The notes beneath the pieces were generated by a model. It did no database searches. It was not told the origin of the DNA and saw only the letters and a program-made list of their open reading frames with translations. DNA of 64,000 nucleotides from Elusimicrobiota bacterium (GTDB taxonomy: Bacteria > Elusimicrobiota > Elusimicrobia > UBA1565), in NCBI GenBank assembly GCA_041661185.1, contig JBAZUV010000001.1:224721-288720 (forward strand), written 5' to 3'. Every line of letters starts with the position of its first letter. The stretch's first letter is position 1. The position numbers and the translations under genes were made by a program. Of the stretch, positions 1,403-27,505 are shown one piece after another.

Positions 1403-1422
1403 TGCGTAGAATTCCGTATAGC
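1403..1422 (+). promoter_or_regulatory. recurrent motif tGCGTAtAATTCCGtATAG (direct repeats CGTATA-N5-CGTATA), instance a, upstream of bfr
   Basis: Five instances on the + strand upstream of + strand genes: 1403-1422, 12782-12801, 24752-24771, 24997-25016, 25851-25870. Confidence 0.5.
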
Positions 1423-1470
1423 GACCCAAGGCGCAGGAAGTATAATGTAAGACGTTGACTGGAGGGACAA

Positions 1471-1941
1471 ATGAAAGGTGATGCGAAACTGATCGGTACG
1501 CTCAATTCTCTTCTGGCCGACGAACTCACGGCCATCAGCCAGTATATGGTCCATGCCGAGATGTGCGAGAACTGGGGCTACGGCAAGCTCCATGATCATT
1601 TCAGGAAGCGCTCCATCGACGAGATGAAGCATGCCGAGCGGCTCATCGCGCGCATCCTCTTCCTGGAGGGGACTCCCGTCGTCAGCGAGCTTCGCGCGAT
1701 GAAGATCGGCGCAGAGGTCCCGCAGATGTTCGGCGGCGACCATTTTCTGGAGTTGGGCGCCATCAAGGCCTACAACGCCGCCATCGCCCAGGCCGTCGCG
1801 GCCAAGGACAACGCCACGCGGGAGATGCTCGAGGATATCCTCAAGGATGAGGACCGCCACATCGACCACATCGAGGAGCGCCGGGACCAGATATCGCAGA
1901 TGGGCATCCAGAATTTCCTCAGCGAGCAGACCAAGGATTAA
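1471..1941 (+). CDS. bfr: bacterioferritin
   Basis: 156 aa. MKGDAKLIGTLNSLLADELTAISQYMVHAEMCENWGY matches the bacterioferritin ferroxidase-site pattern. A -10-like TATAAT lies about 25 nt upstream. Confidence 0.9.
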   Translation: MKGDAKLIGTLNSLLADELTAISQYMVHAEMCENWGYGKLHDHFRKRSIDEMKHAERLIARILFLEGTPVVSELRAMKIGAEVPQMFGGDHFLELGAIKAYNAAIAQAVAAKDNATREMLEDILKDEDRHIDHIEERRDQISQMGIQNFLSEQTKD

Positions 1942-2047
1942 CCTGAGGTAGGGGATCGTCGAATTTGTTAAAATAGGACGTCGGCCGAGGGCGTTCGCAT
2001 CCAGCAGGCCGCTGAGAAGTTCCTCGTGAGCAAGCCTTCTGCTCTTC

Positions 2048-3166
2048 GTGGTGGTGCCAGGTGTCATTTTTGGCGCCATGATCCAAATAGCAGGAGGAGT
2101 ATTGAGTCCGTCTCGCATCACAGAGATGAAGCCTGAACTGTCTATGGATGAACCTGCCGCTTTTTGCGGACTCCTCTCCTGTGCCCTGGAACGCCGCGCC
2201 GATCTGCTGAGCCGGCTGCATGCTGAAGAGACCGACGCCTATCGGCTCTTCCACGGCACCGCGGAAGGACGGCCGGGCCTGACCGTGGACCGCTACGGCG
2301 GCTTGCTGCTGGTGCAGAGCTTCCATTCCCCTTTGCCGCAGCCGGAACTCGCGGCGCTGGAAGCCTTCTATGCCGGGGTCTTTCCGGGCCTGAGCGTCGT
2401 CTACAACGACCGCAGCCGGCCCAATTCCCGCATCCTCAACGAGCTTTCGCCCGAGTCCGTGGCCGCTGCCGTTGAGCCGCGCCAGGCGCGGGAGCTGGGC
2501 GTGCGCTACCGCATCCAGGGGCGGCACGCGGGCCAGGATCCGTGGCTCTTCCTCGACCTGCGCGCCGCGCGCCGCCGCGTGATGCAGGAAGCGGCGGGCA
2601 AATCCCTGCTCAACGTGTTCGCCTATACCTGCGGGGTGGGCATCGCCGCGGCCAAGGCCGGCGCGAGTTCCGTGATGAACGTGGATTTCTCGCGCACCTG
2701 GCTCGACGTGGGCGAGGAGAACGCGCGGCTCAATGAACTGTCCTCTCCGGTGAGCTTCGTTCACTGCGACGCGTTCGCGGCATTGCGCCAGCTTTCCGGA
2801 CTGGGTCAGCCGCGCTTCGTGCGCCGCAAGCGGCTGCCGGACTTTCCTGAGCTTGGAAAGCGGCAGTTCGACCGGGTGTTCTTGGATCCGCCCCGCTATG
2901 CGAAGAGTCCCTTCGGCGTGGTGGACGTCGTTAATGACTATGCGGCGATGTTCAAGCCTGCCTGGCTCTGCACGGCCGAGGGCGGAACGCTCATCTGCTG
3001 CAACAATGCGGCGCAGGCCGAGCGGGAGACGTGGCTGGACCAGCTGGAGCGCAGCGCCCGCAAAGCCGGCCGCCCGATCCGCGAGGCGGAATGGATCTCG
3101 CCGGAAAGCGACTTTCCAAGCATCGACGGACGGCCGCCCTTGAAGATCGTTCTTTTAAGGCCGTAA
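2048..3166 (+). CDS. class I SAM-dependent rRNA methyltransferase (RlmI/YccW-like)
   Basis: Motifs LFHGTAEGRPGLTVDRYGGLLLVQSF and LDPPRYAKS (SAM methyltransferase motif IV-like). The start is uncertain; M at 2123 is possible. No N-terminal PUA domain is evident. Confidence 0.7.
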   Translation: MVVPGVIFGAMIQIAGGVLSPSRITEMKPELSMDEPAAFCGLLSCALERRADLLSRLHAEETDAYRLFHGTAEGRPGLTVDRYGGLLLVQSFHSPLPQPELAALEAFYAGVFPGLSVVYNDRSRPNSRILNELSPESVAAAVEPRQARELGVRYRIQGRHAGQDPWLFLDLRAARRRVMQEAAGKSLLNVFAYTCGVGIAAAKAGASSVMNVDFSRTWLDVGEENARLNELSSPVSFVHCDAFAALRQLSGLGQPRFVRRKRLPDFPELGKRQFDRVFLDPPRYAKSPFGVVDVVNDYAAMFKPAWLCTAEGGTLICCNNAAQAERETWLDQLERSARKAGRPIREAEWISPESDFPSIDGRPPLKIVLLRP

Positions 3167-3190
3167 CAGACGATAAACGGAGGACGCACC

Positions 3191-4579
3191 ATGGGCTTCT
3201 CTTCTTTCAACTTCGATCCTAAGATCACCGCGGGCATACACGCGCTCGGCTACACGAAGCCGACGCCCATACAGGCGCAGGCCATCGGGCCCGTCATGCA
3301 GGGCCGCGATGTGATGGGTTTGGCCCAGACCGGCACCGGCAAGACCGCGGCTTTCGCCCTGCCCATACTCCAGCGCCTGCTCAAGGGCCCCCGCAGCGTC
3401 ACGCGCGCCCTGATCCTGGCGCCCACGCGCGAGCTGGCCGACCAGATCCAAGAGGCCTTCCGCGGCCTGGGCCGCCAGACCGGGCTGCGCAGCCTGACGG
3501 TCTACGGCGGGGTGGGCTTCGGGCCGCAGGTCAGCGGCCTCAGGAACGGCATGGAGATCGTGGTGGCCTGTCCGGGCCGCCTGCTCGTCCATCTTCAGAA
3601 CGGCATCTTCAAGCCCGCGCATGTGGAGGTCCTCGTCATCGACGAGGTCGACCGCCTCTTCGACATGGGCTTCATGCCGGATATCCGAAAAATACTCAAG
3701 CGCCTTCCGCCGCATCGGCAGACCTTGCTCTTCTCGGCCACGATGCCCGAGGATATCCGCAAGCTCTCGCACGAGGTCCTGCGCCAGCCGGTCACCGTGC
3801 AGGTCGATCACGCCGTTCCGCTGGCCACCGTGTCCCATGCCCTCTACCCCGTGGCCGAGCACTTGAAGACCGCCCTGCTCTCCAAGCTCCTGGCGCAGGA
3901 CGGCAAGTCCTCCGTTCTGATCTTCACGCGCACCAAGCACCGCGCCAAGCGCCTCTTCGAGCGCCTGCAGGAGCAGGGTTTGGCCGCGACGTGCCTTCAG
4001 GGGAATCTCTCTCAGAGCCGGCGCAAGTCCTCGCTCGACGGATTCCGGGAGGGCCGCTACAACATCATGGTCGCGACCGACATCGCCTCGCGCGGCATCG
4101 ACATCTCGCAGATCACGCATGTGATCAATTTCGACGTGCCGGATACGACCGAGGCCTACACCCACCGCATCGGCCGCACGGGCCGCGCCGCCAAGACCGG
4201 GGATGCCTTCACGTTCGTCACGCCGCAGGACGAGGGCATGGTGCGCGACATCGAGCGCGTCATGCGCAAGAAGCTCGAACGCCGCCAGCTCAAGGATTTC
4301 GATTATTCGGCCAAGCAGTCCGCCGCGCCCGCGCACGCGTCCCATGCGCCGCATCATCAGGGTCATGGGCATGCGCCCCATCATGCTCATCATGGAGGGC
4401 ATGCAGCCGGCCATCCGCACCCCAAGGCTTCCCACGCCGGGCACCACGCCCGACCGGCGCACTCTTCGGGAGCGTCAGGACAGCCTGGACAGTCTGAGCA
4501 GGGGAAGAAGCCCGCGGGAGGCTTCCACGGTTACGGACGCTTCAGTCGATTCCATTCCCGCGCGCGCCGCCCCCGCTGA
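3191..4579 (+). CDS. DEAD-box ATP-dependent RNA helicase with His-rich low-complexity C-terminal tail
   Basis: Q-motif and motif I (TPIQAQAIGPVMQGRDVMGLAQTGTGKTAAF), DEVD, SAT and HRIGRTGR motifs are present. The tail is rich in H, G, A and P. Confidence 0.9.
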   Translation: MGFSSFNFDPKITAGIHALGYTKPTPIQAQAIGPVMQGRDVMGLAQTGTGKTAAFALPILQRLLKGPRSVTRALILAPTRELADQIQEAFRGLGRQTGLRSLTVYGGVGFGPQVSGLRNGMEIVVACPGRLLVHLQNGIFKPAHVEVLVIDEVDRLFDMGFMPDIRKILKRLPPHRQTLLFSATMPEDIRKLSHEVLRQPVTVQVDHAVPLATVSHALYPVAEHLKTALLSKLLAQDGKSSVLIFTRTKHRAKRLFERLQEQGLAATCLQGNLSQSRRKSSLDGFREGRYNIMVATDIASRGIDISQITHVINFDVPDTTEAYTHRIGRTGRAAKTGDAFTFVTPQDEGMVRDIERVMRKKLERRQLKDFDYSAKQSAAPAHASHAPHHQGHGHAPHHAHHGGHAAGHPHPKASHAGHHARPAHSSGASGQPGQSEQGKKPAGGFHGYGRFSRFHSRARRPR

Positions 4580-4835
4580 AGCGGGGAGAGGCGGCTGATT
4601 CGTCGGAGCCGTTTGCCTGTCTGAGCGAGAGGCGCACGAAGGTCTTGCTGGCGCCTGTTTCACCCGCGACCTTGTCGATCAGTTCCGCCTGGCTCAGGCC
4701 CCGGCCGATGGAGCGGCCGTAATGGTTGTGGGCGCGCCAGCGCTGGATGCTCGCCCGGAGGATCTTTTGATTCTCCCGGTTCTGCGTGAAGGCTCCGGAG
4801 GGCTCATGGGCTTCGACGTTTTTTTGGGTTGCCAT
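4542..4835 (-). CDS. hypothetical small protein with an HU/IHF-like helix (LSQAELIDKVAGETGASKTF)
   Basis: ATG sits 4 nt after the stop of the upstream small ORF, suggesting translational coupling. The 3' end overlaps the convergent helicase by about 38 nt. Weak call. Confidence 0.3.
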   Translation of the reverse strand: MATQKNVEAHEPSGAFTQNRENQKILRASIQRWRAHNHYGRSIGRGLSQAELIDKVAGETGASKTFVRLSLRQANGSDESAASPRFSGGGARGNGID

Positions 4836-4839
4836 GGGT

Positions 4840-5127: not shown

Positions 5128-5308
5128 GTCTATCTCCTTGCGGCCGGCAGTCCGTGAAAAAAGCCTATCGGGGACTGCCGGGAAGGCGCCGCGCTGCATT
5201 CGATGGCGTCGGATTCAGTATAACAGTTATAAGGCGCCGGGCACCGTTGTCAGACGGGGTTGCATTTCGAATTCGAAAACGGCACACTGAAACACAGGAG
5301 AAAACAGC

Positions 5309-6370
5309 ATGCACATGGCGGATGCCCTGATCTCCCCGGCGGTCGGGGGGGCGATGTGGGCGGTTTCGGGCGGGCTCATCGGCTACGGCGCTAAAAAAGT
5401 GCGGGAAGAGGCCGATGATCGGAAGATCCCGCTGATGGGCGTGCTGGGCGCGTTCATCTTCGCCGCGCAGATGATCAATTTCTCCATCCCCGGCACCGGG
5501 TCGAGCGGGCATCTCGGCGGAGGGATGATCCTTTCCATCCTGCTCGGGCCGCATGCGGCGTTCCTCGTCATGGCCTCCGTGCTCACGGTGCAGGCCTTGT
5601 TCTTCGCGGACGGGGGGCTGCTGGCGCTGGGCTGCAACATCTTCAATATGGGCTTCTTCACCTGCTTCATCGCCTATCCGCTGATCTATCGGAAGCTGGT
5701 CTGCGGCAGTCTCGATAAGAAGCGGGTGCTGCTGGGCGCCGTCCTGGCCGGCATCGTCGGCCTGCAGTTGGGGGCTTTCAGCGTGGTGCTGGAGACGGTG
5801 TTCTCCGGCGTTTCCGAACTGCCTTTCAAGACCTTCGTCTTCTTGATGCAGCCGATACACTTGGCCATAGGACTTGTGGAGGGGCTGGTCACCGCGGGGG
5901 TGGTATCCTTTGCGACGGCCGCCCGTCCGGAGATCCTGACCGCCGCCGCGGAGCGGACTCCGCTGGGCGGCAGCGTTAAAAAGGCCGCGCTGGGCATTGC
6001 CGGGGCGGCGATCCTCATTGGGACAGGGCTGAGCTGGTTCGCTTCGGCGGACCCGGACGGCCTCGAATGGGCCATGCTCAGGACCTCCGGCCAGGAGGCG
6101 CTTGAAAGCCGCGGTAAACTCCGCGGCGTTCTGGCTTCCTGGCAGGAGAAGACCGCCTTTCTGCCGGATTACAGTTTTAAAAAAGATGTCTCTGCGGCAG
6201 AGGCTGTTCTTGCCGGGAAAGCCGCGGCCGAGCCGGGCGCCGGGGGGAAGTCCGCTTGGCCCGCGGTCGATTCCGGAACCTCCGCGGCCGGGCTTGTGGG
6301 CGGCGTGATGACGCTGCTGCTGGCCGCGCTCATCGGGATCGCTTTGAAAAAACGGAACGCCGCCGCATGA
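5309..6370 (+). CDS. cbiM: ECF transporter substrate-specific component CbiM fused to a C-terminal PDGLE (CbiN-like) domain
   Basis: N-terminal MH. CbiM-like transmembrane core, then C-terminal ADPDGLEWAM. Followed by the CbiQ and CbiO genes. Confidence 0.85.
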   Translation: MHMADALISPAVGGAMWAVSGGLIGYGAKKVREEADDRKIPLMGVLGAFIFAAQMINFSIPGTGSSGHLGGGMILSILLGPHAAFLVMASVLTVQALFFADGGLLALGCNIFNMGFFTCFIAYPLIYRKLVCGSLDKKRVLLGAVLAGIVGLQLGAFSVVLETVFSGVSELPFKTFVFLMQPIHLAIGLVEGLVTAGVVSFATAARPEILTAAAERTPLGGSVKKAALGIAGAAILIGTGLSWFASADPDGLEWAMLRTSGQEALESRGKLRGVLASWQEKTAFLPDYSFKKDVSAAEAVLAGKAAAEPGAGGKSAWPAVDSGTSAAGLVGGVMTLLLAALIGIALKKRNAAA

Positions 6371-6374
6371 GCGC

Positions 6375-7187
6375 ATGAACAAGCTCGGGAAAAACCTCGT
6401 GGATATCGGCTACATGGACACTCTGTCCGCGGGCCGGAGCTTCCTGCACAAGCTCGATGCGCGCGCCAAGCTTTTGACGACCGTGCTTTTCATGGCGGCC
6501 GTGGTTTCCCTGGATAAATACCAGGTTTCCGCGATGATCCCGTTCTCCTTGTATCCGATATTCTTGATCGGCGCCGGGAACCTGCCTGCAGGATATATAC
6601 TCAGGAAGACGGCGGTGGTGGCGCCCTTCGCTGTTTTTGTGGGGATGTTCAATCCGCTTTTAGACCGGCAGATATTGTTCCACCTCGGCTCATTCGGAGT
6701 CTCGGGGGGCTGGGTTTCTTTCCTGTCCATACTGATCCGCTTCTCGCTGACGGTTTCCGCCGCCCTGGCGCTGCTTTGCGTCACGGGCATCAACGCCCTT
6801 TGCGAGGCGCTGGTGAGGGCGGGCGTTCCCAAGCCGTTCGCGGTCCAGCTGTTGTTCCTGAACCGATACCTGTTCGTGCTCACGGGAGAAGCCGAGCGCA
6901 TGACCCGAGCCCGCCGGCTGCGCTCCTGCGACCGGGGAGCGACGGCTCCGCGCGCATTCATCCAGATCGTCGGGCACCTGCTCCTGCGCACCATGGACCG
7001 CGCCGAGCGCGTTTACCGGGCCATGCTCTGCCGCGGCTTCGACGGGCATGTGCGCGTCGTCCGGTTTTCAAGGATCGGCCGCGCTGAGCTGGCGTTCATC
7101 CTCGGCTGGGCGGCCTTGTTCGCGGTCTTCAGATCCGTAAATCTCCCGGTCATCCTGGGACAAGCGGTCGCGGGAGCATGGAAATGA
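6375..7187 (+). CDS. cbiQ: ECF transporter transmembrane (T) component CbiQ
   Basis: 270-aa polytopic membrane protein between cbiM and cbiO. It has the conserved C-terminal R-rich motif of T components. Confidence 0.85.
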   Translation: MNKLGKNLVDIGYMDTLSAGRSFLHKLDARAKLLTTVLFMAAVVSLDKYQVSAMIPFSLYPIFLIGAGNLPAGYILRKTAVVAPFAVFVGMFNPLLDRQILFHLGSFGVSGGWVSFLSILIRFSLTVSAALALLCVTGINALCEALVRAGVPKPFAVQLLFLNRYLFVLTGEAERMTRARRLRSCDRGATAPRAFIQIVGHLLLRTMDRAERVYRAMLCRGFDGHVRVVRFSRIGRAELAFILGWAALFAVFRSVNLPVILGQAVAGAWK

Positions 7188-7915
7188 GCCACCACATCAT
7201 CGAAGCCGATGCGATACGATACTCTTACCCCGACGGCACGGCCGCGCTCGGCGGCGTCTCATTTAGGATAAGCCACGGGGAATCCGTCGCGCTGGTGGGG
7301 GAGAACGGGGCGGGAAAATCCACCTTGCTGCAGCATTTCACCGGCTGCCTTTTTCCTGAGTCCGGGAGCCTGAGCATCGGCGGGGTCCCTGTGTCGAAGC
7401 AGAACCTCTTGGCCGTGCGCCGGGCCGTGGGCATGGTCTTCCAGAATCCCGACGACCAGCTCTTCATGCCCACGGTCTTCGAGGACGTGGCCTTCGGCCT
7501 GCTGAACCTGGGCGTGCCCGAGGCGGAGCTGGAAGGGAAGGTCATGGCTGCGCTGGAAACGGTCGGCGCGCCGCATCTGCGGGCTCGGCCGCCCTACAGG
7601 CTTTCGCAGGGGGAGAAAAGGGCCGTTTCGATCGCCGGGGTCCTGGCCATGTCTCCGGATATCCTCGTCATGGACGAGCCGACCTCGAACCTGGATCCCC
7701 TCTCGCGCAGGCGCCTCATCGGCCTCCTGAGGACCTTTCAGCACACCAAGATCATCGCCACGCACGACTTGGATTTCGCCCTGGAGCTGTGCGAAAGGAC
7801 GCTCGTCATCCACAAAGGGAGCATCACCGCCGACGGCCCGACCCGGGAGATATTCCGCGACGAGCAGCTGCTCATGCGCAGCAGTCTGGAAAAGCCGTTG
7901 TCGCTCGGCTCCTGA
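7178..7915 (+). CDS. cbiO: ECF transporter ATPase CbiO
   Basis: Walker A GENGAGKST, ABC signature LSQGEKRAVSIAG, Walker B ILVMDEPTS. Overlaps cbiQ. Confidence 0.9.
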   Translation: MEMSHHIIEADAIRYSYPDGTAALGGVSFRISHGESVALVGENGAGKSTLLQHFTGCLFPESGSLSIGGVPVSKQNLLAVRRAVGMVFQNPDDQLFMPTVFEDVAFGLLNLGVPEAELEGKVMAALETVGAPHLRARPPYRLSQGEKRAVSIAGVLAMSPDILVMDEPTSNLDPLSRRRLIGLLRTFQHTKIIATHDLDFALELCERTLVIHKGSITADGPTREIFRDEQLLMRSSLEKPLSLGS

Positions 7916-7957
7916 GCGCGGAGTACGGCGCCATCATAAAATTGGCATAATCAGGGA

Positions 7958-8638
7958 ATGGCTGGAGAGAAGATCCTTATCGTCGAAGATGAGAAGCCCC
8001 TCGTCAAAGTCCTCAAATACAATCTCGAGAAGGAAGGCTATCGCGTTGCCGCGGCTTTCGACGGAGAGGCCGGGCTGCTGATGTGGCGTCAGGAGCGGCC
8101 GGATCTCATCATCCTCGACCTCATGCTCCCCAAAGTTGACGGCTTTGATTTCTGCAAGACGCTCCGCCGGGATTGCCAGACTCCCATATTGATGCTGACC
8201 GCCAGGAAAGAAGAAGTCGACCGCGTCTTGGGCTTGGAACTCGGGGCCGACGACTATGTCACCAAGCCTTTCAGCGTGAGGGAGGTCCTGGCGCGCATCA
8301 AGGCCATCCTCAAGCGCGCCTCAGGGAAGTCTTCTCCCGGCATCGTCCGCGCGGGCGCGCTCGAGGCGGACCTGGAACGCTATGAGACGCGGGTCAACGG
8401 CAAGCCGGTTTCCTTGAGCCCCAGGGAGTTCATGTTCTTGCGATGCCTCTTCGAGGCCGATGGGAAGGCTTTGTCTCGGGACCAGCTTCTGGAGAAGGTC
8501 TGGGGCTGCGACAAGTCCATGGACATCGACACGCGCACCATCGATCAGCATGTCGCGCGCATGCGGGAGAAGCTGGGGCCGGAAAGCAAGAGGATCGTCA
8601 CGGTCAAGGGCGTGGGCTACCGGATCAAGCTGGATTGA
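7958..8638 (+). CDS. OmpR/PhoB-family response regulator
   Basis: Receiver domain (ILIVEDE, DLIILDLMLP, K at KPF) plus a winged-helix C-terminal domain. Confidence 0.9.
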   Translation: MAGEKILIVEDEKPLVKVLKYNLEKEGYRVAAAFDGEAGLLMWRQERPDLIILDLMLPKVDGFDFCKTLRRDCQTPILMLTARKEEVDRVLGLELGADDYVTKPFSVREVLARIKAILKRASGKSSPGIVRAGALEADLERYETRVNGKPVSLSPREFMFLRCLFEADGKALSRDQLLEKVWGCDKSMDIDTRTIDQHVARMREKLGPESKRIVTVKGVGYRIKLD

Positions 8639-9570
8639 TGCATAGATACTGCTTCATCGAGGTCCTGCTGGGAGCTGCGGCGAGCGCGGTCCTGGCGTTC
8701 TTCTGGCTTCGCCGTTCCATGAGCCGCCCCATCGCCGAGATCGCGGCTGCCGCGGAAAGACTGGCGCGAGGAGAGCATGACGCCCGGGTGAGGCTGCCGC
8801 CGACCACGCGGTTGGGCCGCTTGGGCGCGACCCTGAACCTCTTGGCCGAACGATTCCAGCACGATATCAGCGAGCTGCACCGGCTCGAGCATGTGCGCAA
8901 GGAGTTCGTGGCCAATGTCTCGCACGAACTGCGCACTCCGCTGGCCACGATCAAGGCTTATGCCGAGACCCTTCGCGAGGGCGCCCTGGAAGATGCGGAG
9001 AACCGCCTGGAGTTCATTTCGGAGATCGAAAAGAACGCGGAGCGCATGACAAGGCTCGTAGACGACCTTCTCACCATTTCGGCCCTGGAGTCGGGCAAGA
9101 TGCCTCCGGTCTTCGAGCCGGTGGACCTCATGGATATCGCGCGCGAAGTCGTCGTCGGGATGATGGCGTTGGCGCAGAAGAAGCAGGCCATCATCCGCCT
9201 GGAGACGTTTCAGGGCATTGCGCGGGTCCGGGCCGACAAGAACCAGCTCAAGCAGGTCTTGACCAATCTCATCGAAAACGCCGTCAAATACACCGGAGAG
9301 AAAGGGATCATCAGCGTCTCGGCTTCCATGCAGGAGGGCCGGCCCGCCGTCTCGGTCCGGGACAACGGCTGCGGCATCCCTGCGGAGTCCATTCCCCGCA
9401 TTTTCGAGCGCTTCTACCGCGTAGACAAGAACCGATCCCGCGAGTCCGGAGGCACCGGCTTGGGCCTGGCGATCGTCAAGCATATCGTCGAGGTCCACGG
9501 CGGCTCGGTGAGCGTCGAGAGCACGCTCGGCGAAGGCTCGGTCTTCCGCTTCACGCTCCCCGCCGCATGA
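8638..9570 (+). CDS. sensor histidine kinase (one TM + HAMP + HisKA + HATPase); no extracytoplasmic sensor domain
   Basis: ATG overlaps the response-regulator stop (TGATG). H-box HELRTPLATI and N/G boxes are present. Confidence 0.85.
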   Translation: MHRYCFIEVLLGAAASAVLAFFWLRRSMSRPIAEIAAAAERLARGEHDARVRLPPTTRLGRLGATLNLLAERFQHDISELHRLEHVRKEFVANVSHELRTPLATIKAYAETLREGALEDAENRLEFISEIEKNAERMTRLVDDLLTISALESGKMPPVFEPVDLMDIAREVVVGMMALAQKKQAIIRLETFQGIARVRADKNQLKQVLTNLIENAVKYTGEKGIISVSASMQEGRPAVSVRDNGCGIPAESIPRIFERFYRVDKNRSRESGGTGLGLAIVKHIVEVHGGSVSVESTLGEGSVFRFTLPAA

Positions 9571-9652
9571 ATCGTCCCCCCGGCGAAAGCCGGGGCCCAG
9601 GAATTGCTGGATCCCGGCTTCCGCCGGGATGACGGACATCCCGTTTCCCGGG

Positions 9653-9670
9653 CTGTCACGCCGTTGTCAC
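9653..9670 (+). promoter_or_regulatory. Pho-box-like direct repeat CTGTCAC-GCCG-TTGTCAC upstream of the DUF47-pit operon
   Basis: Two 7-bp repeats with 11-bp periodicity. Consensus Pho box is CTGTCAT-N4-CTGTCAT. Adjacent to the phoB/phoR-like genes. Confidence 0.5.
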
Positions 9671-9726
9671 ATACCTTTTACTTCGTCGCTATCGGATGCG
9701 CGCGGCTTTGCGCGTATCATCTTCGC

Positions 9727-10353
9727 ATGGCATTCACATTGATCCCGAAAGAAGAGAAGTTCTTCGCCTTGTTCGATGCGCAGGCCGCGCACGGAGTCGC
9801 GGCGGCCAAGGCTTTCCGAGAGCTGGTGCTGAACTGGGAGCCGCAGTCCCCGCTCATTGAGAAGCTCCATGAGATCGAGCATGAAGCGGATCTCTCCACC
9901 CACGAGATCAAGGACAAGATCAACCGGACATTCATCACCCCGTTCGATCGGGAAGACATCCACCTGCTCGCCAGCGAACTCGACGACATCGTGGACATCA
10001 TCAATGCCACGGCCGTGCGCATGAGCCTCTATCGCTTGTCCGAATGCCGGCCGCAGCTCTGCGGGCTTGCCGATATCCTCTGCCAAGCCGCGGAGTCGAT
10101 TCAAAAAGCGATCGCCTGCCTGTCGGATCCCGCAAAGAGCCGACGCCTCATGGACTGCTGCATCGAGACCAACCGACTCGAGAATGAAGGCGACAAGCTC
10201 CTGGCCCAGGCCATCGAGGAGCTCTTCCGCGCTCCCACGGACCCCATCGAGGTCATCAAATGGGAGCGGATATATGAGGCGACCGAGGCGGCCATAGACA
10301 AGTGCGAACATGCGGCCCATACTCTCGAAGCCGTGCTCGTCAAACAGGGCTGA
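9727..10353 (+). CDS. DUF47/PhoU-like phosphate transport regulator
   Basis: MAFTLIPKEEKFFALFD... of about 208 aa, the family typically encoded upstream of pit. Start chosen at the internal ATG after the Pho-box-like site. Confidence 0.8.
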   Translation: MAFTLIPKEEKFFALFDAQAAHGVAAAKAFRELVLNWEPQSPLIEKLHEIEHEADLSTHEIKDKINRTFITPFDREDIHLLASELDDIVDIINATAVRMSLYRLSECRPQLCGLADILCQAAESIQKAIACLSDPAKSRRLMDCCIETNRLENEGDKLLAQAIEELFRAPTDPIEVIKWERIYEATEAAIDKCEHAAHTLEAVLVKQG

Positions 10354-10356
10354 GCC

Positions 10357-11346: not shown

Positions 11347-11355
11347 CCGTCTTTT

Positions 11356-12725: not shown

Positions 12726-12781
12726 TTTCCCATTCCCTTGCATCTTGGCATCCTCTCGGTAAGGAGTTTTACCTAGGGTCC

Positions 12782-12801
12782 TGCGTATAATTTCTTATAG
12801 G
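12782..12801 (+). promoter_or_regulatory. same motif, instance b (TGCGTATAATTTCTTATAGG) upstream of tal-xfp
   Basis: Seen directly in the sequence. Confidence 0.5.
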
Positions 12802-12850
12802 CAGGATATGGGCAGGCGGCTAGGATGATATCTGGAAAGGAGACAAGAGC

Positions 12851-16404: not shown

Positions 16405-19400
16405 CTATTTCGGCGACGCGTTTTGCGGCAGGGCTTCTCCCATCACCAGCTTTACCGCGTGGGCCGCTCCGTCGTCGACCAGCGCGATGGCGCTCGGATC
16501 GGCCGGCTTGCCGTCGAGCTCCGCGGAAACGACCCCTCGGCAGCGGTGTCCCGGGTTAGACACCGAGATCACGTAGCGCGTCCGGCCGAAGAGCCACGAG
16601 ATCTCATACTCGGACCAGGAAGAAGGGATGCAGGGGTCCAGTTCGAAGGCCGCGCCGCGGCGCTTGAGTCCCAGGATGCTCTCGAGCCCTGCGCGGTACA
16701 TCCAGCCCGCCGAACCGGTGTACCAGGTCCAGCCGGCTCGGCCGGAATGGTCGGGGTGCGCCAAGACGTCGCCGGCGAGGACGTAGGGCTCGCCCTTGTA
16801 GCGGCCGACGTCCGCGGCGCTGCGCGTGTGGTTGATGGGGTTGAGCATGTGGAAGAGCTCGGCGGCCTCGTCGCCGCAGCCCTGCTTGGCCAGGGCCATG
16901 ACGATCCAGGCGGCCGCGTGCGTGTATTGGCCGCCGTTCTCGCGCGCGCCGGGCGGGTAGCCCTTGATGTAGCCGGGCGACTGCTCCGAGCGGTCGAAGG
17001 GCGGCGTGAGCAGGAGGATGAGCCCGGCTCCGCGGCGGACGAGGTGGGTCCGCACCGCGTCCATCGCGCGCTCCGCCAGGCGCGGCGGGGCCGCGCCGGA
17101 AAGCACGGCCCAGGCCTGCGAGATCGAGTCGATCTGGCACTCGGGGCTTTGCGCCGAGCCCAGAGCGACGCCGTCGTCGTCGTAAGCGCGCCGGTACCAC
17201 TCGCCGTCCCACGACTGCTCGAGCACCGCCGCCAGGCGGCTCGCTTCGGCTCGGCAGCGCTCGGCTCGGGGGGAGTCTCCGCGGGACTCGCACAGGGGCG
17301 CGAAGTCGCCGAGCACTGCATATAGGAAAAAGCCGAGCCAGACGCTTTCGCCCCGTCCTTCACGTCCCACGCGGTTCATGCCGTCGTTCCAGTCGCCGTT
17401 GCCCATCAGCGGCAGGCCGTGCGCGCCCGAGGTGAGTCCGCGGTCGAGCGCGCGCGTGCAGTGCTCGAAGAGCGAGGCTCTTTCTGCACAGACGCTCGGC
17501 CGGCAATAGCTTTCCTGCTCGCCGGGCGCCAGCAGCGGGGACTCCAGGAACGGGACGCTCTCGTCGAGTATCCCGGAGTCTCCCGTCGTCTTCACGTAGT
17601 GCGCGACGGCGTAGGGAAGCCAGAGAAGGTCGTCGGAGCAGCGGGTGCGCGTGCCCCGGCCGCTGGGCGGATGCCACCAATGCTGGACGTCGCCCTCCAG
17701 GAACTGACGGGCGGCCGCGCGCAGGAGGTGCTCCCTCGCCAGGTCCGGCCGGGCCAGCATGAGAGCCAGCGCATCCTGAAGCTGGTCGCGAAATCCAAAG
17801 GCGCCGCCGGGCTGGGAGTAGCCGGTCCGCGCCCAGAGGCGGCAGCCGAGGTTCTGATAGAGCAGCCAGCGGTTCATCAGGAGATCGAAGGAGTCATCGG
17901 GCGTTTTGACCTGCACCGCACCGAGGGTATTCTCCCAGCCTTGGCGCACGCTCTCGAGCGCCGCGCGCGCCGCCGGGACGCCGCCGTGTCGGACGATCAA
18001 TTCACGGGCGTGCGCCGCGTCCTTTCCCTGGCCGAGGAGGAAGACCATGCGGCGCGTTTCGCCCGGCAGGAGCTTCACCGGGACCTGCAGCGCCGCGCAC
18101 GGATCGAGGCCGGCCCCGAAGCGTCCCGAGAGCGTTTCCCGGAATAGCGCCGCCGGACGGGAGAGCGAGCCGTTTCGCCCGAGGAAGGAGGTCCGGTCGC
18201 CCGAAGACGACTTCACCGCGTCGCTGGAATGGAGGAAGGCCGTTCGTCCCGCGAAGTCGTTGTTCCAGGCGTTGGAGGCCAGGATCGCCCCGGTCTGCGC
18301 GTCTCGCTGGGTTAGGACGTTCAGGTGCCGGCCGTCCTGAGGAGGCCCCAGCGACCACTCGTTGTAGGCGAAGATGCTCAATGCGCAGGGCGAGCCGCTC
18401 TCATTGCTCAGCGTCAGGAGAGAGAATTTCACGGGGTCCGCCGCGTCCACGAAGATCTCCAGGCGATGACGGATCCCGTGGACGGCGCGGTCGAAGCTCG
18501 TGACTCCGGCCGCGTGGCGGATCACGAAGCGGCCGCCTTCGCTCGTCCGGGGCAGCGGGCCCGGCGTCGGAGACCAGACCGCGCCCGTTTTGTCGTCGCG
18601 GACGAAGATCGCCTCGGAGGTCGGGTCGCAGACCGGGTCGTTGGCGAAGGGCGTGAGCCGATTCTCCCGGCTGTTTTCGGACCAAGTGTATGACGAGCCC
18701 GATTCCGTGACGACGGTTCCGAAAGCCGGGCCGGCGAGGACGTTGGCCCAGGGCAGCGGCGTCCCCTGGGCGCCTTCGAGGACGATGGCGTACTCGCGTC
18801 CGCCTTCCGTGAAGCCGCCCAGACCGTTGGCCATGACCATCGGCGGCGCCTCCGGCGGCATGCAGGGCTTGCCGTTTCGCGGGGCCCGCCGCGTCGGGGG
18901 CGCGGGCTCGCGGGACGCGCGCACGGTCCAATCCGGCGAGGGCCGGTCGAGCTGCTGCGAGAGGCCTCCGCGGTCGCTGCTGAGGATGGCCCGCGCGACG
19001 GCCTGGAGCAGGAGGCGTTCGGCTTCGGGCATGCGGTCCGCGCGGAGCAGGTATGCGCCGCCGGGCCGGTGCTTCCACGTCCGCCAGGGACCGTTGTCGA
19101 GCAGCGCCGTCAGCTGGGCGTGGACCTCGTCGTAATAGCTCACGGGATGCTCGTTGAGGATCACGACGTCCGCGAGCAGGCCCTTGAGCCGCCAGTACTC
19201 CTGGGCCTGGAGGATCTGGCGCGCGAGCGCGAGCCCGTCCTGCGAGAGGACGCGCACCAGCACGATCGGCAGGTCGCCCGAGATTTCGTGCGGCCAGAGT
19301 CCCGATTGGCCCAGCGTGCTGCGCGTCATGACCTCGGGAGCGGCGCGCAGAGAGGCGTCGTGGTAGAGGACGCGCGAGGCGAGGCGGTCGAAAAGGAGCG

Positions 19401-22400
19401 TTTCCTCGATCGAAAGGCCGAGGTGGCGCCGGTTGCTCTGGGCGTGCGCGAAGGCCATGGCGAAGGTGCGCGCCGCGGCGCTGGGATCGCGGTAGCGCTG
19501 GACGAGCGCCAGGGCCATCTCCCGGCTCGACGCCGCGCCCGTGGCGAAGGAGAGCCTCGCGACGGCGCCTGGCGCCAGGAGGATGCGCCGGCGCAGGCTG
19601 ACGATGGGATCGAGCAGGACGCCGGTCGTTCCGGTCAGCGGGCGCCCATCGAGCGCCTGCGGGTCCTCGGGACCGCGTCCGCGTCCGAGGAAGCGGGCCC
19701 GATCGCTCTCCCACTCCATGGGGCCTTGCGCGCGTCCGTCGAGACTAAGGACATGGACGGCCCATGCCGGCGCGTCTTCCGGAGAGCGCGATCGTCGCCG
19801 GCAGAGCAGCGCGCCGGCGTCGGCCAGATATTCCGACTCCACGAAGAGCTTGCCGAACGCCGGATGAGCGAGATCGTCGGCCGGCGGAGCCAGGACGATC
19901 TCGGCATAGCTCGTGACCTCGAGCTCGCGTGTCCGCTCGTCGTGGTTGGTCACCGTGAGGCGGCGGACCTCGACGTCGTCCTCGGGAGAGACGGCGATCT
20001 CCAGCTGGGTGGCGATTCCGTCGTCGCGGCGAAGGTAGGTCGCCTTGTCGATGGAGAAGGTGACGAGGGGGTTTTCTCCCTCCGTGCCGATCGGATGATG
20101 CGCCGTCGACCAGACGCGGCCGCTGCGCACGTCGCGCAGGTAGAGGAACTGGCTGCCGGGGTCGCGCGTCGCGTCCGAGCGCGTCCGGGTGATCGCTCGT
20201 CCCGCGCAGAAGCTGGCGCCGCCGCCCGCGTTGGTGACCACCACGGTGTATCGGCCGTTCGAGAGGAACTGGGCGTGAGGGAAGGTCGTGTAGGCGGAGC
20301 GGAATCTGCGCACCGCCGCCGCGGACACGGGCGCGGATATCCGCGTTCCGTCGTCCGGCCGCGGGCGGATGATCAGCGCGTGGCGCGGCGCGCGCTCCTG
20401 CAGGAGGAGCTCGGTGGCCCGCACGCGAGGATCGGCGTGGAATCGCTCCACCATCCGCCTTCCGTCGAGGACGTTGGCGATGGCGGTCAGCGCCATGCCC
20501 TGGTGATGGGCCATGTACGTCTTCACGATCGCGCCGGGAGGTCCGCGCCGGTCCGGGATCCGCGCGGTCGGCTCGTCGCTGCCGCGCGGGGTGTAGTCGA
20601 CGGCATCGAAATAGCCGTATTCGCCCTCGAGTCCCTCCGCTTTCAGGCGCCGCAGGTTGCCGGCGGCCGCCGCGGGGTCGACCAGGGCGGCCAGCGCCGC
20701 GGCGTAGGGCGCGATCACCAGTTCGTCGCCGAGGCCGCGCTTGAGGCCCAGGCCGGGCACGCCGAAGGCCTTGTATTGATAGTTGTCGTGGCGGTCGACG
20801 AGCGTGTAGGCGCATTCGGAGATCCCCCACGGCACGCCGCGCGCCTTCGCGTAGTCCTGCTGAGCGCGCACCGCCATCCGGCACGACTCATCGAGCAGGG
20901 TTCCCGGATATCTGCGCATCACGAGCAGCGGCATCAGATATTCGAACATCGTCGCGCTCCAAGACAGCAGCGTCGGCGTGCCGTGCACGTTCGTCACGGA
21001 GCGTCCCAGGTGGAACCAGTGCGCTTCCGGCAGGTCTCCCTTGGCGATGGCCAGGAAGCTCGCCAGACGCGCCTCCGAGGCGAGCAGATCGTACGCGGCG
21101 ACGTCGAGCTTTCCCGGCCCCTCCGCGTCCGCCGCGCGATACCCGATCGCGAGCAAGCGCCGCTGGGGGTCATAGAGGAAGCGGAAATTCATCGCGTCGC
21201 CGAACGCGGCGGCGCGCGCCGCCAGGCTCTCGAGCTTCGCGCGCGCGTCGAGGGGTTCGAGGGTCGCGGAGGGATCCAGGCGCGCGAGCTCCCGGAGCCC
21301 TTCGGCCAGGGCGATGAGCGCGCCGTAGAGATTCCCGCTGTCGACGCTGGAGACGTAGCGGGGAGTGAGCGCGGCCAGACTGCGCGTGTCGTACCAGTTG
21401 AACAGGTGGCCCTCGATGCGCTCGAGGCCCTCCATCGTCGTCAGCGCCGCGTCGATCTTCTCCAGCAATTCCGGGGTCTTGATGAAGCCGAGATCGTGCG
21501 CCGCGAGCGTCGAAAGCAGGCCGAAGCCGATATTGGTGGGAGAGGTCCGGTGCGCGAGCTTCGGCTCGGGAGAGAGCTGATAGTTGTCCGGCGGCAGGCC
21601 GTGGTCTTCCGGTCCCATGAAAGCCGCGAAATAGCCCCAGGTCTTGCGGGCCGCGGCGCGCAGGAACTCCCGGTCCTCCTCGCCGAGCTCGGCGTCCTCC
21701 CGCAAGATCGGCCGGCTCAGCACGCACGCGATCATCGGCGCGGCGGCCCACAAGACGAGCAGCGGCGCGGCCGCGGGCAGGGCACAGGGCCGGAGGATCG
21801 CGACCAGGGCCGCGCCGGCCAGCGCGATGATCGGACTCGCCGCCATCGCGATGAAGAACGACCGGGCGGCGGATGCTCCGGCGGGGCTCACGCCGCGCGC
21901 GGCGCTTGCGGCGGAGGTCTCCCACTCGAGCAGTCCTTGATGCGTGATCAGGACCCGCGCGAGCGTGACCAGGACGGCGTTGGCCGCCTCATGCGCCTGG
22001 TCGGCCAGCAAAACGAGCTGGAGCGCGATCCGCGCCAGGACGCATGCCGCATCTTCCCAGAACACGCGAAGGAAGCCTTGCCACGACTGCCGCGGCCTCG
22101 GGCCGTTGAGCGTCTCGATGGAAAGCAGGTACAACGGGAACGCGATGGCCGCAATGACGGCCGCGGTCCAGCGTCCGGGGCTTCCCGGCAGGAGCGTCCA
22201 CGCGAAGAGGAGAAGGGCGAGTGTCGCGGGAGCGACGAGGCTTCGGCGAAGGTTGTCGAGGATCTTCCACCGGGCGATCGGCGAGAGGCGGTTTCGCCGC
22301 AGGCCGGTGCGCGTCGGGACGAAGGGGAAGAGCCATGCCAGGAGCTGCCAGTCGCCGCGCATCCAGCGGCGCGCGCGGCGCGCGTACGCCGGATAGGTCG

Positions 22401-24714
22401 AGGGATAATCGTCGACGACCTCCACGTCGGTCACCAGCGCCGTGCGCGCATGAAGCCCTTCGAAAAGGTCGTGGGACAGGAGCGCATTCTCGGGCACGCG
22501 GCCGTTGAGCGCCGCTGTGAAGGCGTCGACGTCGTAGAGCCCCTTGCCGGTGAATATCCCTTCGCCGAAGAGGTCCTGATAGGCGTCCGAGACGGCCGTG
22601 GTGTAGGGATCGACGCCGGTGTGGCCGGCGTAGAGGCGCGCGAAGCGCGAGCCGGCGGCGCTGGAGCTGGTTACGCTGACGCGCGGCTGGAGGATCGCGT
22701 AGCCTTCAGTGATCCGTCCGAGCTTTTCATCGTAGTGCGGCCGGTTGAGCGGGTGCGCGATGATGCCGATGAGTTTTTTTGCCGCGTCGCGCGGCAGGCG
22801 CGTATCGGAGTCGAGGGTGATGCAGCAGCGCACGCGCGGGAGCGCCGACAAGTCCCCCGTCTGGACGGTGAAGCCCGTGTCCTTCGCCCCGCGCAGGAGG
22901 GCATTGAGCTCCTCGAGCTTGCCGCGCTTGCGCTCCCAGCCCATCCAGGACCCTTCGCCGGGGTTCCAGCGGCGCTCGCGATGGAGCAGGAAGAAGCGGT
23001 CTCCCCGCCCTTCGCTCAGGCGCGCGTTGAGTTCCGCGATGCCGCTGCGGGCGGCGTCCAGGATGGCGTCGTCGTCCGGCGTTTCTTTCGCGTCCGCGTC
23101 CGTGAAGTCGCTGAGGATCGCGAAATGGATCCGGGGATCGAGGTTGCCCAGAGCAAGGACCTCGATATGCTCGACGAGCTCCCGGGTTCCCTCGACGCTC
23201 GTCAGAAGGGTGGGCACCACGACGAGGGTCCGAGCGTCATCGGGGATCCCCGCCAGGAGGTCCAGGCGCGGCAGGCGCCGCGGCGGCGCGAACCACGCGG
23301 CGAGGCGCTGGATGAGGGCGATGGCCGCATCGCTGGCCGGCAGGAGCAGCAGCGCCGCGAGGACGAGCCGCATGCGGATCGAGCCTCCGTCGCTTCCGAC
23401 AAAAGAGAGCGCGGCCGCGATCAGCGCGCCGGTCGTCAGCGAGATCGCGCTCAGATAGACGAACCCGGCGTGGGCGAACGCCGCGCGCCTCAAGCGCTGC
23501 AGCGGGCCGGGATGCCAGGCTACGTCCTCTTCAAGGGTGCGGCGGCCCTTTCCGATCAGGTGCCAGCCCACGTGCGCGGCGCGCGCGGACGGCCCCCCGG
23601 TCTCGGCCGCCAGGCGGGCGCTTTCGACGGTCCTCAGGGCCACGCGCACCTGGGCTTCCGCGGCGGGCTCGGCCAGTTCCTCGATGGACTGCCGGTAGCG
23701 GTCCCGGCTCAAGAAATCCATGCGCGGGTAGATGCCGGCGGGATCGCGCCTGAGGACGCGCTCGACGAGACTCACGGCCTCGACGTACTCGCTCCAGTCC
23801 AAGGCGGAGACCAGGCGCATGCTGGTGATGACGTTGGCCGTGGAGACCTGGGAGACGGCCTCTCGCTGGTGTTCGCAGCGGATCGCTTCCTCGGGCGTCA
23901 TCGGCAAGGCGGCCAGATGCGCGTCGAGGCCTGCGCGAACGGCTTCAAGGCGGGGCCCATACTCCCGCACGCGCTGGAGGAGCTGCACGATCTGCGCGAG
24001 ATGGAGCTCTCGGGGCAGCGGCGGCGGGACTCCCTTGCCCGCCGCGTCGATCCGGGCCACATACGCGTCCGCGGCCCGCCGCGCCGCGCGGGCGGCCAGG
24101 ATCTCCTCGGTCAGGCGCCGCAGGTTCTCGATGAGGGCCAGCTTCAGCATGCTCGGCCATGCCCAGAGCTCTCCGATCGTCAGCGGGGCGACGGTCTGGA
24201 AGCTGTCCAGGAAGCGCACGAGCTGAGGGCGGTCCAGGCGGCTGTCGCTGTGGCGGATGAGCTCTACGGCCAGGGCGTAGACGCGGGCGTGGCCGGCAAG
24301 CTCGCGCGAGGCGAGCTTGGGCAGCTCGCGGTAGTAGGCGCGCGGGAGGTTTTGGTGCACTTCCCGGATCTCGGAGACCGCCAGGTAAAAATTATCCAGG
24401 AGCCACTCCGCCGCCGGAGTGACGAACTCGCCTTGGTGCACGTCGTCGGCGAGCGTGCGGTAGGCCTCGCGCAGGAGGCGGGCGTTGTCCTCGAAACGAG
24501 GGAAGACGCTGCGCGCCGCGCCTCCGGAGGGGTCCACCGTGAACCGGGCCGCCAGCGCGCGGGCCCGCTCCTCCAGGCGCTCGATGCTGAGCAGTTCATC
24601 GCGCAGAGGCTTCTCGGCCCTGGGGGCGGAGCGGAACCTTCCGCCGAAAGATCCTGAGGTGAACGCTGCGAAGAAGGAGTTCTCAATCCGACCAAAGTCA
24701 GAGTTTCGCAGCAT
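16405..24714 (-). CDS. cyclic beta-1,2-glucan synthase (Cgs/NdvB/ChvB-like: N-terminal membrane GT84 domain + C-terminal GH94 phosphorylase-like domain)
   Basis: 2769 aa. DSDTRLP and RRWMRGDWQ glycosyltransferase motifs, multiple transmembrane blocks, and a C-terminal GH94-type [13 protein letters not shown]. Codon bias produces long antisense shadow ORFs. Confidence 0.85.
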
Positions 24715-24996
24715 TCCTTTCAGTGTATCTTTATAATCCTTCCTTCAGGTATGCGTAATACTCCGTATAGCCGTTTATGATGCACGCGGATTCATGCGAA
24801 GATCCCGCATTTGGGCGGCTGTTCCGGGATATCGTCGAGCAGGGCGCAGACGTCATGATCCAGACCAATACCCCCGGCGCCGTGCAGTCGCTCATAGACG
24901 AAAGACGCCGGTAGCGGAAGGGAGCGGAGATTCCCTCGTCGCTAGGCGGCGTCATGACTTCCGGCCGCGGGGCTCTCAGTAATTCTCCCTCCAGGA

Positions 24997-25016
24997 TCGC
25001 GTATAATTCCGAATAG
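24997..25016 (+). promoter_or_regulatory. same motif, instance d (TCGCGTATAATTCCGAATAG), about 65 nt upstream of wrbA; instance c at 24752-24771
   Basis: Seen directly in the sequence. Confidence 0.5.
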
Positions 25017-25078
25017 ATTCGCTTGGGACAGGAATATACCATGCGCATCAGTAGAGGCGTTGTTATAAGGGGGAATCG

Positions 25079-25702
25079 ATGAAAATCCTCGTTGCCTATT
25101 ATTCGATGTACGGGCACGTCTACAAGCTGGCGCAGGCCGCCGCCGAGGGCGCCTCGGGCGTGAAAGGCGCGCAGGTTTCTCTCAAACGCATACCTGAGAC
25201 CCTTCCAAAAGAAGCGCTTGAAAAAATGGGAGCGCTGGATGCGCAGAAGGAGCAGGAGAAAGTGCCGGTATGCGCCGTTGACGACCTTGCGGCGGCCGAC
25301 GCCGTCATCTTCGGCACGCCTACGCGCTTCGGGAACATGTGCGGCCAGATGAGGCAGTTCCTTGACGCCACAGGCGGGCTCTGGCTCAAAGGCGCCATGG
25401 TGGGCAAGGTCGGCAGCGTGATAACCAGCTCCGCCACCCAGCATGGGGGGCAGGAATCCACGCTCCTCTCTTTCCACATCACGCTCCTGCACCAAGGCAT
25501 GGTGGTCGCCGGGCTGCCTTACGCCTTCCAAGGCCAGATGGGCACGGCTGAGATGACCGGAGGTTCGCCCTACGGCGCGTCGACCATCGCCGGTGCGAAG
25601 GGCGAGCGGATGCCGAGCCGGAATGAGCTTGCGGGCGCGAAGTTTCAAGGCAGGTACGTCGCCCTGTTGGCCGAACGCCTCGCGGGGATAAAGATCGGCT
25701 GA
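25079..25702 (+). CDS. wrbA: NAD(P)H:quinone oxidoreductase WrbA (flavodoxin-like)
   Basis: [20 protein letters not shown] and [12 protein letters not shown]-binding motifs. Confidence 0.9.
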
Positions 25703-25718
25703 CGTCGGCGAGCAAAAA

Positions 25719-25753
25719 CGCCCCCCGGCTCTTCAAGGCCGGGGGGCGCTTTC
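25719..25753 (+). terminator. stem-loop GCCCCCCGGC...GCCGGGGGGC after wrbA
   Basis: 10-bp GC stem directly downstream of the stop. The U-tract is weak (GCTTTCG). Confidence 0.5.
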
Positions 25754-25850
25754 GTGATCGTCGGGGCGCACGCCGCGGCCTTCTCCCGGCAGGCTGGCTT
25801 CCCTCAAGAAATAGCTCCTTTGGCTGCCTGCGGAGTTTTACTTCCTGCCT

Positions 25851-25870
25851 TGCGTATAATTCCGCATTGG
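25851..25870 (+). promoter_or_regulatory. same motif, instance e (TGCGTATAATTCCGCATTGG) upstream of the AAA ATPase gene
   Basis: Seen directly in the sequence. Confidence 0.5.
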
Positions 25871-27501: not shown

Positions 27502-27505
27502 AAAG

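Follow-up and report, generated by a model that had tools for sequence, protein, structure and literature searches.

Transcription factors with a GerE-type helix-turn-helix (GerE-HTH), such as LuxR, TraR and RcsB, bind as dimers just upstream of the -35 hexamer or overlapping it; the lux box is centred near -42.5, and RcsB controls envelope and osmotic stress genes. LuxR and TraR depend on a ligand rather than on phosphorylation. At the DevR promoters of M. tuberculosis, tandem in-phase boxes are found at -42.5 and -63.5, with weaker secondary boxes and with divergent promoters that share boxes (PMC3177182). For NarL of E. coli, a single 7-2-7 site at -44.5 suffices for activation (PMC9314961). 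Here we describe a recurrent 19-nucleotide (nt) motif in the DNA of an Elusimicrobiota bacterium (assembly GCA_041661185.1, contig JBAZUV010000001.1, positions 224,721 to 288,720); this whole stretch of 64,000 nt is called the window below. We consider it probable that the motif is the class-II-type activator site of an Elusimicrobia-specific NarL-family regulator, which would control a stress-type regulon. In the literature, we found no description of the motif, of Elusimicrobia regulons or of transcriptional regulation in Elusimicrobiota.

The window was searched with GCGTATAATTCCGTATAG, allowing up to three mismatches, and 100 dinucleotide-preserving shuffles served as the background. Exactly five matches were obtained, at 1404-1421, 12783-12800, 24753-24770, 24999-25016 and 25852-25869, all of them on the + strand, and a match occurred in 0 of the 100 shuffled sequences. 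In their 19-nt form, (T/C)GCGTAtAATTCCGnATwG, the copies start at 1403, 12782, 24752, 24998 and 25851. The gaps from the motif end to the start codon are 49, 50, 308, 62 and 93 nt, respectively, and Pfam identified the downstream genes as ferritin/bfr, transaldolase plus phosphoketolase (tal-xfp), a WrbA-like flavin mononucleotide (FMN) reductase and an AAA_14/DUF4143 ATPase. The first-pass annotation, which was made from the letters alone, had reported five near-identical + strand copies lying 20-330 nt upstream of bfr, tal-xfp, wrbA and the AAA ATPase gene; copy number, distances and targets were all confirmed, and its view of the motif as a shared, oriented cis-regulatory element upstream of stress and redox genes is supported. 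A weight-matrix search of the window and the 8.5 kilobases (kb) upstream of it revealed no further copies; the sole extra candidate in the window, at 45193, lies inside the start of the open reading frame (ORF) 45192-46091, which was read as sucD by eye. The DNA stretch with the motif is also present in ENA and Logan assemblies, and its transaldolase has 100% identity to a protein listed by NCBI under an Elusimicrobiota MAG (metagenome-assembled genome).

The motif stands at a fixed position relative to a downstream promoter. Its final TTG or TAG is the start of a -35-like hexamer, T(T/A)Gnnn, and a 16-base-pair (bp) core, (T/C)GCGTAkAAyTCCGyA, ends where this hexamer begins. We collected 38 sites from about 13 Elusimicrobia and put 31 of them to a geometry test, in which a TAnnnT was sought 16-18 nt after the hexamer starting at motif position 17. 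Such a -10 was present at 27 of the 31 sites, compared to a background of 1.66% (binomial P about 1e-44). When only the loci fetched by protein homology, and not by the motif, were considered, 17 of 19 sites had a -10 (P about 1e-28). Furthermore, a -10 accompanied 26 of the 31 matrix hits of at least 9 bits in the regulator loci described below, but none of the 27 in control DNA. The geometry was absent from all 20 chance matches in viral contigs, and was seen in two of the 88 matches of a genome-collection scan, one of the two being an Elusimicrobiaceae MAG. Among the metagenome matches listed, numbering at least 117, it was seen in 11, of which seven are high-GC contigs judged genuine. The spacer between the -35-like hexamer and the -10 is 16-18 nt, 17 in most sites, and the -10 is often preceded by a G at -14; within the motif, G4, A6, C13, A16 and T17 are invariant in the logo. 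Taking +1 as about 7 nt after the predicted -10, the core would be centred at about -43.5. In a class II activator-dependent promoter of the sigma-70 type, the activator site abuts or overlaps the -35, its centre falls between -41.5 and -44.5 and the -10 is recognisable, and the sites conform to this arrangement when their centre is reckoned from the predicted -10.

The motif also embeds a TATAAT, which the first-pass annotation had pointed out, with a promoter class as one of its two suggestions. If this hexamer served as a -10, the copies would define a special promoter class for either the housekeeping sigma factor or an alternative one, and GGAGTT or GAAATC would be the -35; the perfect TATAAT in three of the five window copies and an AT-rich patch about 17 nt upstream of it would suit such a class. 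However, in the relatives the GC-rich flanks are constant but the central hexamer is not (TAAAGT, TAGAGT, CATTAT and TACAAC occur), no consistent -35 lies upstream, and the AT-rich patch turned out to be another copy of the site. Since a distinct TAnnnT, paired with its own -35-like hexamer, is found at a fixed spacing about 29 nt downstream, the embedded TATAAT is not the -10 of the promoter, and a special promoter class is thus highly improbable. The TATAAT appears instead to be the AT-rich centre of a predicted protein-binding site; as far as can be judged from the sequences, the motif is most likely a transcription-factor binding site and not a promoter hexamer. Two readings made by eye, a sigma-54 promoter (GG-N10-GC) at the ATATGGG box and promoters of the extracytoplasmic function (ECF) or SigB type (GGAAT-N16-CGTA; GTTT...GGGTAT), were dropped given the fixed downstream -35 and -10. 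A second, loosely conserved box had been claimed to follow four of the five copies. The box does not, however, represent a single element: an ATATGGG is indeed shared by the promoter spacers behind the copies at 12783 and 25852, whereas the sequences assigned to the box at 1404 and 24999 coincide in part with the predicted -10. A hairpin formed in RNA by the motif and the GGAATAT box was also dropped, as the pairing was inconsistent between copies and the motif would be untranscribed under the proposed geometry.

The core has an AT-rich centre, and its position, -52 to -36, is one at which RNA polymerase binds DNA through the C-terminal domain of its alpha subunit. The motif might therefore need no dedicated regulator and act either as a transcribed RNA element or in the manner of an UP element, which the alpha subunit contacts. 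We give this very little credence: the strongest conservation falls on GC positions (G4, C13, G14), unlike that of UP elements, and the site is present at a subset of genes only. As for an RNA element, the Rfam covariance models gave no match to the motif in the window, where two tRNAs alone reached gathering scores, and the proposed geometry would put the site upstream of the transcript.

Conservation is also seen upstream of the motif, where a second patch, T..GgAAT..TAC, occupies positions -21 to -9 counted from the motif. This patch is a weaker copy of the 16-bp site, located 22-24 bp upstream of the proximal one, and the distal site would be centred near -65.5. The 9-mer CTCAGTAAT of the wrbA distal element recurs, equally far in front of a site, in the metagenome contig L183, and the near-identical CTCTCAGTAATA precedes a site in L251. 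The L183 site with this flank (CTCAGTAAT-N14, as at the window wrbA copy) is a second copy in that contig, on the opposite strand and outside the scan pattern, with TTGTCG-N17-TATACT in the same geometry. The divergent promoter pairs of L240 (7011/7018), L246 (6944/6951) and L251 (740/747) have two sites at a distance of 22 bp, and each site is directed at its own promoter.

The columns of the 16-bp site can be arranged in two ways. Read as an inverted repeat, the site is GCGnA-N4-TnCGC in a 7-2-7 layout, and its heptamers, YGCGTAK and TGCGGAR, agree at 5/7 positions at the consensus level. Read as a direct repeat, it contains CGyAT at positions 3-7 and 13-17. The mean per-site match was 3.79/7 for the inverted reading and 3.82/7 for the 10-bp direct repeat. 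At one orthologous promoter, the site is a near-perfect 7-2-7 palindrome, TGCGTAAAGTTACGCA in L238 and TGCGTAGAGTTACGCA in L239, e.g., TGCGTAA-AG-TTACGCA. Since dimer binding is usual for GerE-HTH proteins, we prefer the inverted arrangement. The half-sites had been described earlier as having an 11-bp periodicity; two CG-centred half-sites one helical turn apart do exist, but their period is 10 bp (C2 to C12).

The direct-repeat reading is at the base of another proposal of the first-pass annotation, namely an OmpR/PhoB-type tandem box for a winged-helix response regulator such as that encoded at 7958-8638. The pho box and the OmpR boxes likewise consist of two similar half-sites about one helical turn apart, oriented to the promoter; the 10-bp period of CGyAT agrees with the logo no less well than the inverted arrangement, and the orientation of the sites towards the promoter is constant. 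Nevertheless, we regard this proposal as very unlikely. The pho box replaces the -35, whereas the site here precedes a separate, recognisable -35-like hexamer and leaves it in place. The sites of the relatives flank regulators with GerE-HTH and not with winged-helix (Trans_reg_C) domains, and near-perfect palindromic variants exist. The regulator at 7958-8638 itself, which shares its operon with a HAMP kinase, PhoU_div and PHO4, has no site in front of it. The more general expectation that a response regulator is the likely binder is supported; the regulators flanked by the sites in relatives are of the NarL/LuxR type.

Sites outside the window were sought in two collections. A genome-collection scan with GCGTAKAATTCCGNATAG, one genome per species, gave 88 matches, which were attributed to chance or to coding sequence by their flanks, coding context and taxon, save the Elusimicrobiaceae MAG (L067), which is genuine by its geometry. 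Except for L067, the scan missed the family because the pattern ends in ...ATAG while most real sites end in ...ATTG. The metagenome scan returned at least 117 loci, with about seven genuine ones among the matches listed. In the high-GC metagenome contigs L111, L117, L183, L197 and L226, the site reads TGCGTAkAATTCCGyATTG, and in each of them a TAnnnT is located exactly 17 nt after the hexamer starting with TTG. In L197, the site precedes grpE. Homologues of the window transaldolase (about 82% identity) were found in unrelated genomic contexts with no site, and the control loci L228 and L232 from other organisms had zero sites. Among what was scanned, the motif is restricted to Elusimicrobia.

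In L183, the first site precedes genes for a small membrane protein and a NarL/LuxR-type response regulator, and tblastn showed that regulators 65-71% identical to that of L183 adjoin the site in L117 and L111. Thus, three of the five metagenome contigs first singled out (L183, L117 and L111) have the regulator beside the site. At E <= 1e-40, 2472 homologues of this regulator family were obtained, and those with a named source are all from Elusimicrobia; the closest solved homologues are NarL (1a04, E 8e-32), VraR, ChrA and DevR. By homology to the regulator protein, further loci were fetched from seven organisms (L236/237, L238, L239, L240-245, L246-250, L251 and L253). They have a conserved locus in common (L236 4916-10550; L238 3943-12341; L239 3910-12378; L251 3829-10672; L253 1142-3328): a kinase of 1200-1400 amino acids, in which a CheB methylesterase, a CheR methyltransferase, several PAS domains and HisKA_3 are fused, is followed by regulator 1, then in some cases by a receiver-only paralogue, and by an outer-membrane beta-barrel gene and regulator 2. 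The two or three NarL-type regulators of a locus are 62% identical to each other, and BON (OsmY-like), DUF5670, AI-2E and Omp85/TamB genes are found in the vicinity.

Each of the seven fetched loci contains three to seven matrix hits of at least 9 bits, all intergenic, and overall 31 sites were present in 123 kb. Their orientation is in nearly all cases towards the gene downstream, and a few make more sense as distal partners of a neighbouring site. One site precedes the operon of the outer-membrane gene and regulator 2, or the regulator itself, in 7/7 organisms, and other sites precede the kinase, the receiver paralogue, BON genes, Transgly_assoc, DUF6627, DUF7948 and an uncharacterised protein of about 150 amino acids. 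Altogether, a cognate regulator with REC and GerE domains has a site upstream or adjacent in L183, L117, L111, L236/237, L238, L239, L240-245, L246-250, L251 and L253.

The protein of about 150 amino acids, which has no Pfam match, is encoded at L236 19609-20058 (-) and L240 7535-7987 (+); the two versions are 59% identical and both are preceded by a site, and it is a predicted conserved member of the regulon. A site-preceded protein of 149 amino acids at L246 7005-7454 (+) is possibly of the same kind.

Several observations weigh against the assignment of the motif to these regulators. An orthologue of the NarL-type regulator was found neither in the window nor in the adjoining 8.5 kb on its upstream side. 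Sites occur in the window at a density of about one per 16 kb without a regulator nearby, so that the regulon may be large, and the enrichment at the regulator loci, about 4-fold, is only moderate. The window copies at 24752 and 25851 have no downstream -10. An imperfect inverted repeat and a 10-bp direct repeat fit the columns equally well, and a role as a repressor site is also conceivable because the -35 and -10 of many sites are fairly good. The regulators, for their part, may just belong to the regulon of another factor. In that case, the same site geometry would be used by a different transcription factor, either an activator or a repressor shielding the -35, and the NarL-type genes would be mere members of its large regulon; the site density, the decent promoter hexamers and the missing regulator gene in the source genome stretch all point in this direction. 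What speaks against another factor is the distribution of the sites in relatives: the most consensus-like one precedes the regulator operon in every organism examined, further ones precede the kinase and the receiver-only paralogue, the regulator adjoins three of the five contigs first singled out, and no other transcription-factor gene is recurrent near the sites. We therefore judge a different binder to be unlikely, although it is the alternative to be taken most seriously.

Under the preferred reading, a phosphorylated dimer of a NarL/LuxR-family response regulator (REC plus GerE-HTH) would bind the proximal site, adjoin the -35 and recruit the sigma-70-type RNA polymerase by class II activation, aided by the upstream site. 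The genes switched on would be bfr, tal-xfp and wrbA in the window, and, in the relatives, BON/OsmY-like genes, Transgly_assoc, grpE, the outer-membrane beta-barrel gene and the two-component genes themselves. Autoregulation is suggested because the best-conserved sites precede the regulator genes in every relative examined. The signal of the system and the transcription starts are likewise inferred.

Such a system would resemble the DevR/DosR regulon in its tandem in-phase boxes with the proximal one beside the -35 (here at approximately -43.5/-65.5, 22 bp apart), its weaker distal box, its divergent promoters with two boxes in common, its autoregulated two-component operon and its stress- or dormancy-type targets. 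The box, however, is a 16-bp GCGnA-N4-TnCGC rather than the Dev box of 18-20 bp, the phylum differs, and the kinase is of the CheB/CheR-PAS-HisKA_3 type instead of the GAF-haem DosS/DosT; moreover, each locus has two or three paralogous regulators. In common with NarL, the closest solved homologue of the regulator, the site is readable as inverted heptamers 2 bp apart, TGCGTAT-AA-TTCCGCA. The heptamer is nevertheless unrelated to TACYYMT, the palindrome is imperfect (5/7 at the consensus) with a direct-repeat reading equally possible, and the targets are stress genes rather than nitrate respiration genes. The boxes of LuxR and TraR also differ in sequence from the motif. The mechanism, i.e., a NarL-family class II activator with tandem sites, is thus conventional, whereas the sequence, the phylum and the kinase differ from the known cases.

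Since Elusimicrobiota are almost entirely uncultured, it is of use that an operator, a promoter architecture and a candidate regulator are now concrete and testable, and that regulon prediction from MAGs alone becomes possible. The target genes suggest that iron storage, redox, pentose-phosphate and envelope genes and chaperones are coordinated under stress. A wider proposal, which we put forward tentatively and hold to be possible rather than probable, is that the phylum Elusimicrobiota as a whole runs its general stress response through a dedicated two-component system and not through an alternative sigma factor, with the operator at about -43.5/-65.5. If so, the system would consist of the CheB/CheR-fused multi-PAS HisKA_3 kinase and two or three paralogous NarL-type regulators, and its set of targets would resemble the RpoS and SigB regulons: OsmY-like BON and YeaQ/YmgE-like proteins, GrpE-DnaK, Bfr, WrbA, Tal-Xfp and possibly a cyclic-glucan-synthase-like enzyme.

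Three of the window copies have the complete geometry, and all features given here are on the + strand. Upstream of bfr, the proximal site found by the pattern search is TGCGTAGAATTCCGTATAG (1403-1421, core 1403-1418); the -35-like hexamer TAGCGA (1419-1424) takes its first three nt from the last three of the motif, and the predicted -10, TATAAT (1441-1446), follows after a spacer of 16 nt. The start codon is at 1471, and bfr (ferritin-like, 1471-1941) is a putative regulon member by its Pfam assignment. About 23 bp upstream of this proximal site, a weak distal site, CGCGGAAATCTCCCAT (1380-1395), has 10/16 matches to the distal consensus TGCGGAATTTTACCTA, as compared by eye. Upstream of tal-xfp, the pattern search gave the proximal site TGCGTATAATTTCTTATAG (12782-12800, core 12782-12797), with the -35-like hexamer TAGGCA at 12798-12803 and the predicted -10 TAGGAT at 12821-12826 (spacer 17, G at -14) assigned by geometry. 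Sequence comparison placed the distal site TAAGGAGTTTTACCTA at 12760-12775, 22 bp centre-to-centre from the proximal one. The putative target operon (12851-16341) consists, according to Pfam, of genes for a transaldolase (12851-13972, start codon 12851) and a phosphoketolase (13969-16341). Upstream of wrbA, the proximal site CGCGTATAATTCCGAATAG (24998-25016, core 24998-25013) is followed by the hexamer TAGATT (25014-25019) and the predicted -10 TACCAT (25037-25042, spacer 17), for which TATACC (25035-25040) is an alternative. The distal element CTCAGTAATTCTCCCT (24975-24990) was placed by comparison with L183 and L251, and the WrbA-like FMN reductase gene (25079-25702, start codon 25079) is a putative regulon member by Pfam. 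The predicted bfr, tal-xfp and wrbA promoters would each give a short leader containing a Shine-Dalgarno sequence.

The other two copies are different. The divergent copy TGCGTAATACTCCGTATAG (24752-24770, +) is in the intergenic region between wrbA and a GH94/GT2 gene (16405-24714, -), which is divergent from the wrbA region. Its forward -10 is absent; when it is read on the minus strand, a TACCTG-N18-TACACT is obtained, in which the TACACT (24727-24722) lies 7 nt before the GH94 start codon (24714). That this copy serves the GH94 gene in reverse is suggestive only, since such a -10 arises by chance at a rate of about 1.7%, and the gene is at best a weak candidate for the regulon. Its product of 2769 amino acids, encoded by DNA of about 70% GC, has the domains Glyco_trans_2_3, Glycoamylase, GH94 beta-supersandwich and GH94, and we read it as cyclic beta-1,2-glucan-synthase-like. 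Directly after the 24752 site, an ORF of 45 amino acids (24777-24914, +) is a gene call in two Logan assemblies; it matches no family, and a -10 is not evident in front of it.

The copy at 25851-25869 (+), TGCGTATAATTCCGCATTG, has the best matrix score and the best core of the window, a distal site, TGCGGAGTTTTACTTC (25829-25844, +), 22 bp centre-to-centre upstream, as placed by sequence comparison, and a TTGGCA -35 (25867-25872), yet no -10 is present at 16-18 nt and the copy is an orphan. The AAA_14/DUF4143 ATPase gene (25963-27168, +, Pfam) behind it has a promoter of its own, TTGACT-N18-TATAAT (25923-25952). This near-consensus promoter ends 10 nt before the ATG, so the ATPase mRNA would be almost leaderless; the surrounding 90 nt or so are markedly AT-rich. 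We also considered whether a genomic island had severed the 25851 site from its promoter. This was rejected: the direct repeats of the island are at 27502 and 33002, so that the ATPase gene and the site are both outside it and the island does not explain the orphan copy.

Two observations concern the scan background. GCGTAGAATTCCGCATAG occurs with similar flanks in many alphaproteobacterial and a few other proteobacterial genomes (L027, L028, L040, L046, L055, L061, L063, L095, L097, L105 and L110), and much of the genome-scan background arises because it sits in what looks like a conserved coding region. In a Kiloniellaceae MAG (L036, 2227-2290), there is a perfect GCGTATAATTCCGTATAG and, 18 nt behind it, a second one, cgtataattccg, with the Elusimicrobia promoter geometry absent; the pair may be an unrelated tandem operator of an alphaproteobacterium.

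Elsewhere in the window, the region 5309-11346 contains CbiM/CbiQ/ABC transporter genes followed by the OmpR-type regulator, the HAMP-HisKA kinase, PhoU_div and the PHO4 phosphate transporter, and this two-component unit is probably phosphate-related and unrelated to the motif. The direct repeats at 27502-27544 and 33002-33044 (also 27319-27332) are 43 nt long, 86% identical and resemble a tRNA 3' end, and tRNA genes are located at 33264-33339 and 34181-34252. The stretch between the two repeats has a low GC content (48-55%) and encodes DndB, a BglII-type endonuclease and an N6/N4 methyltransferase; as a whole, 27502-33044 looks like an integrated defence island.

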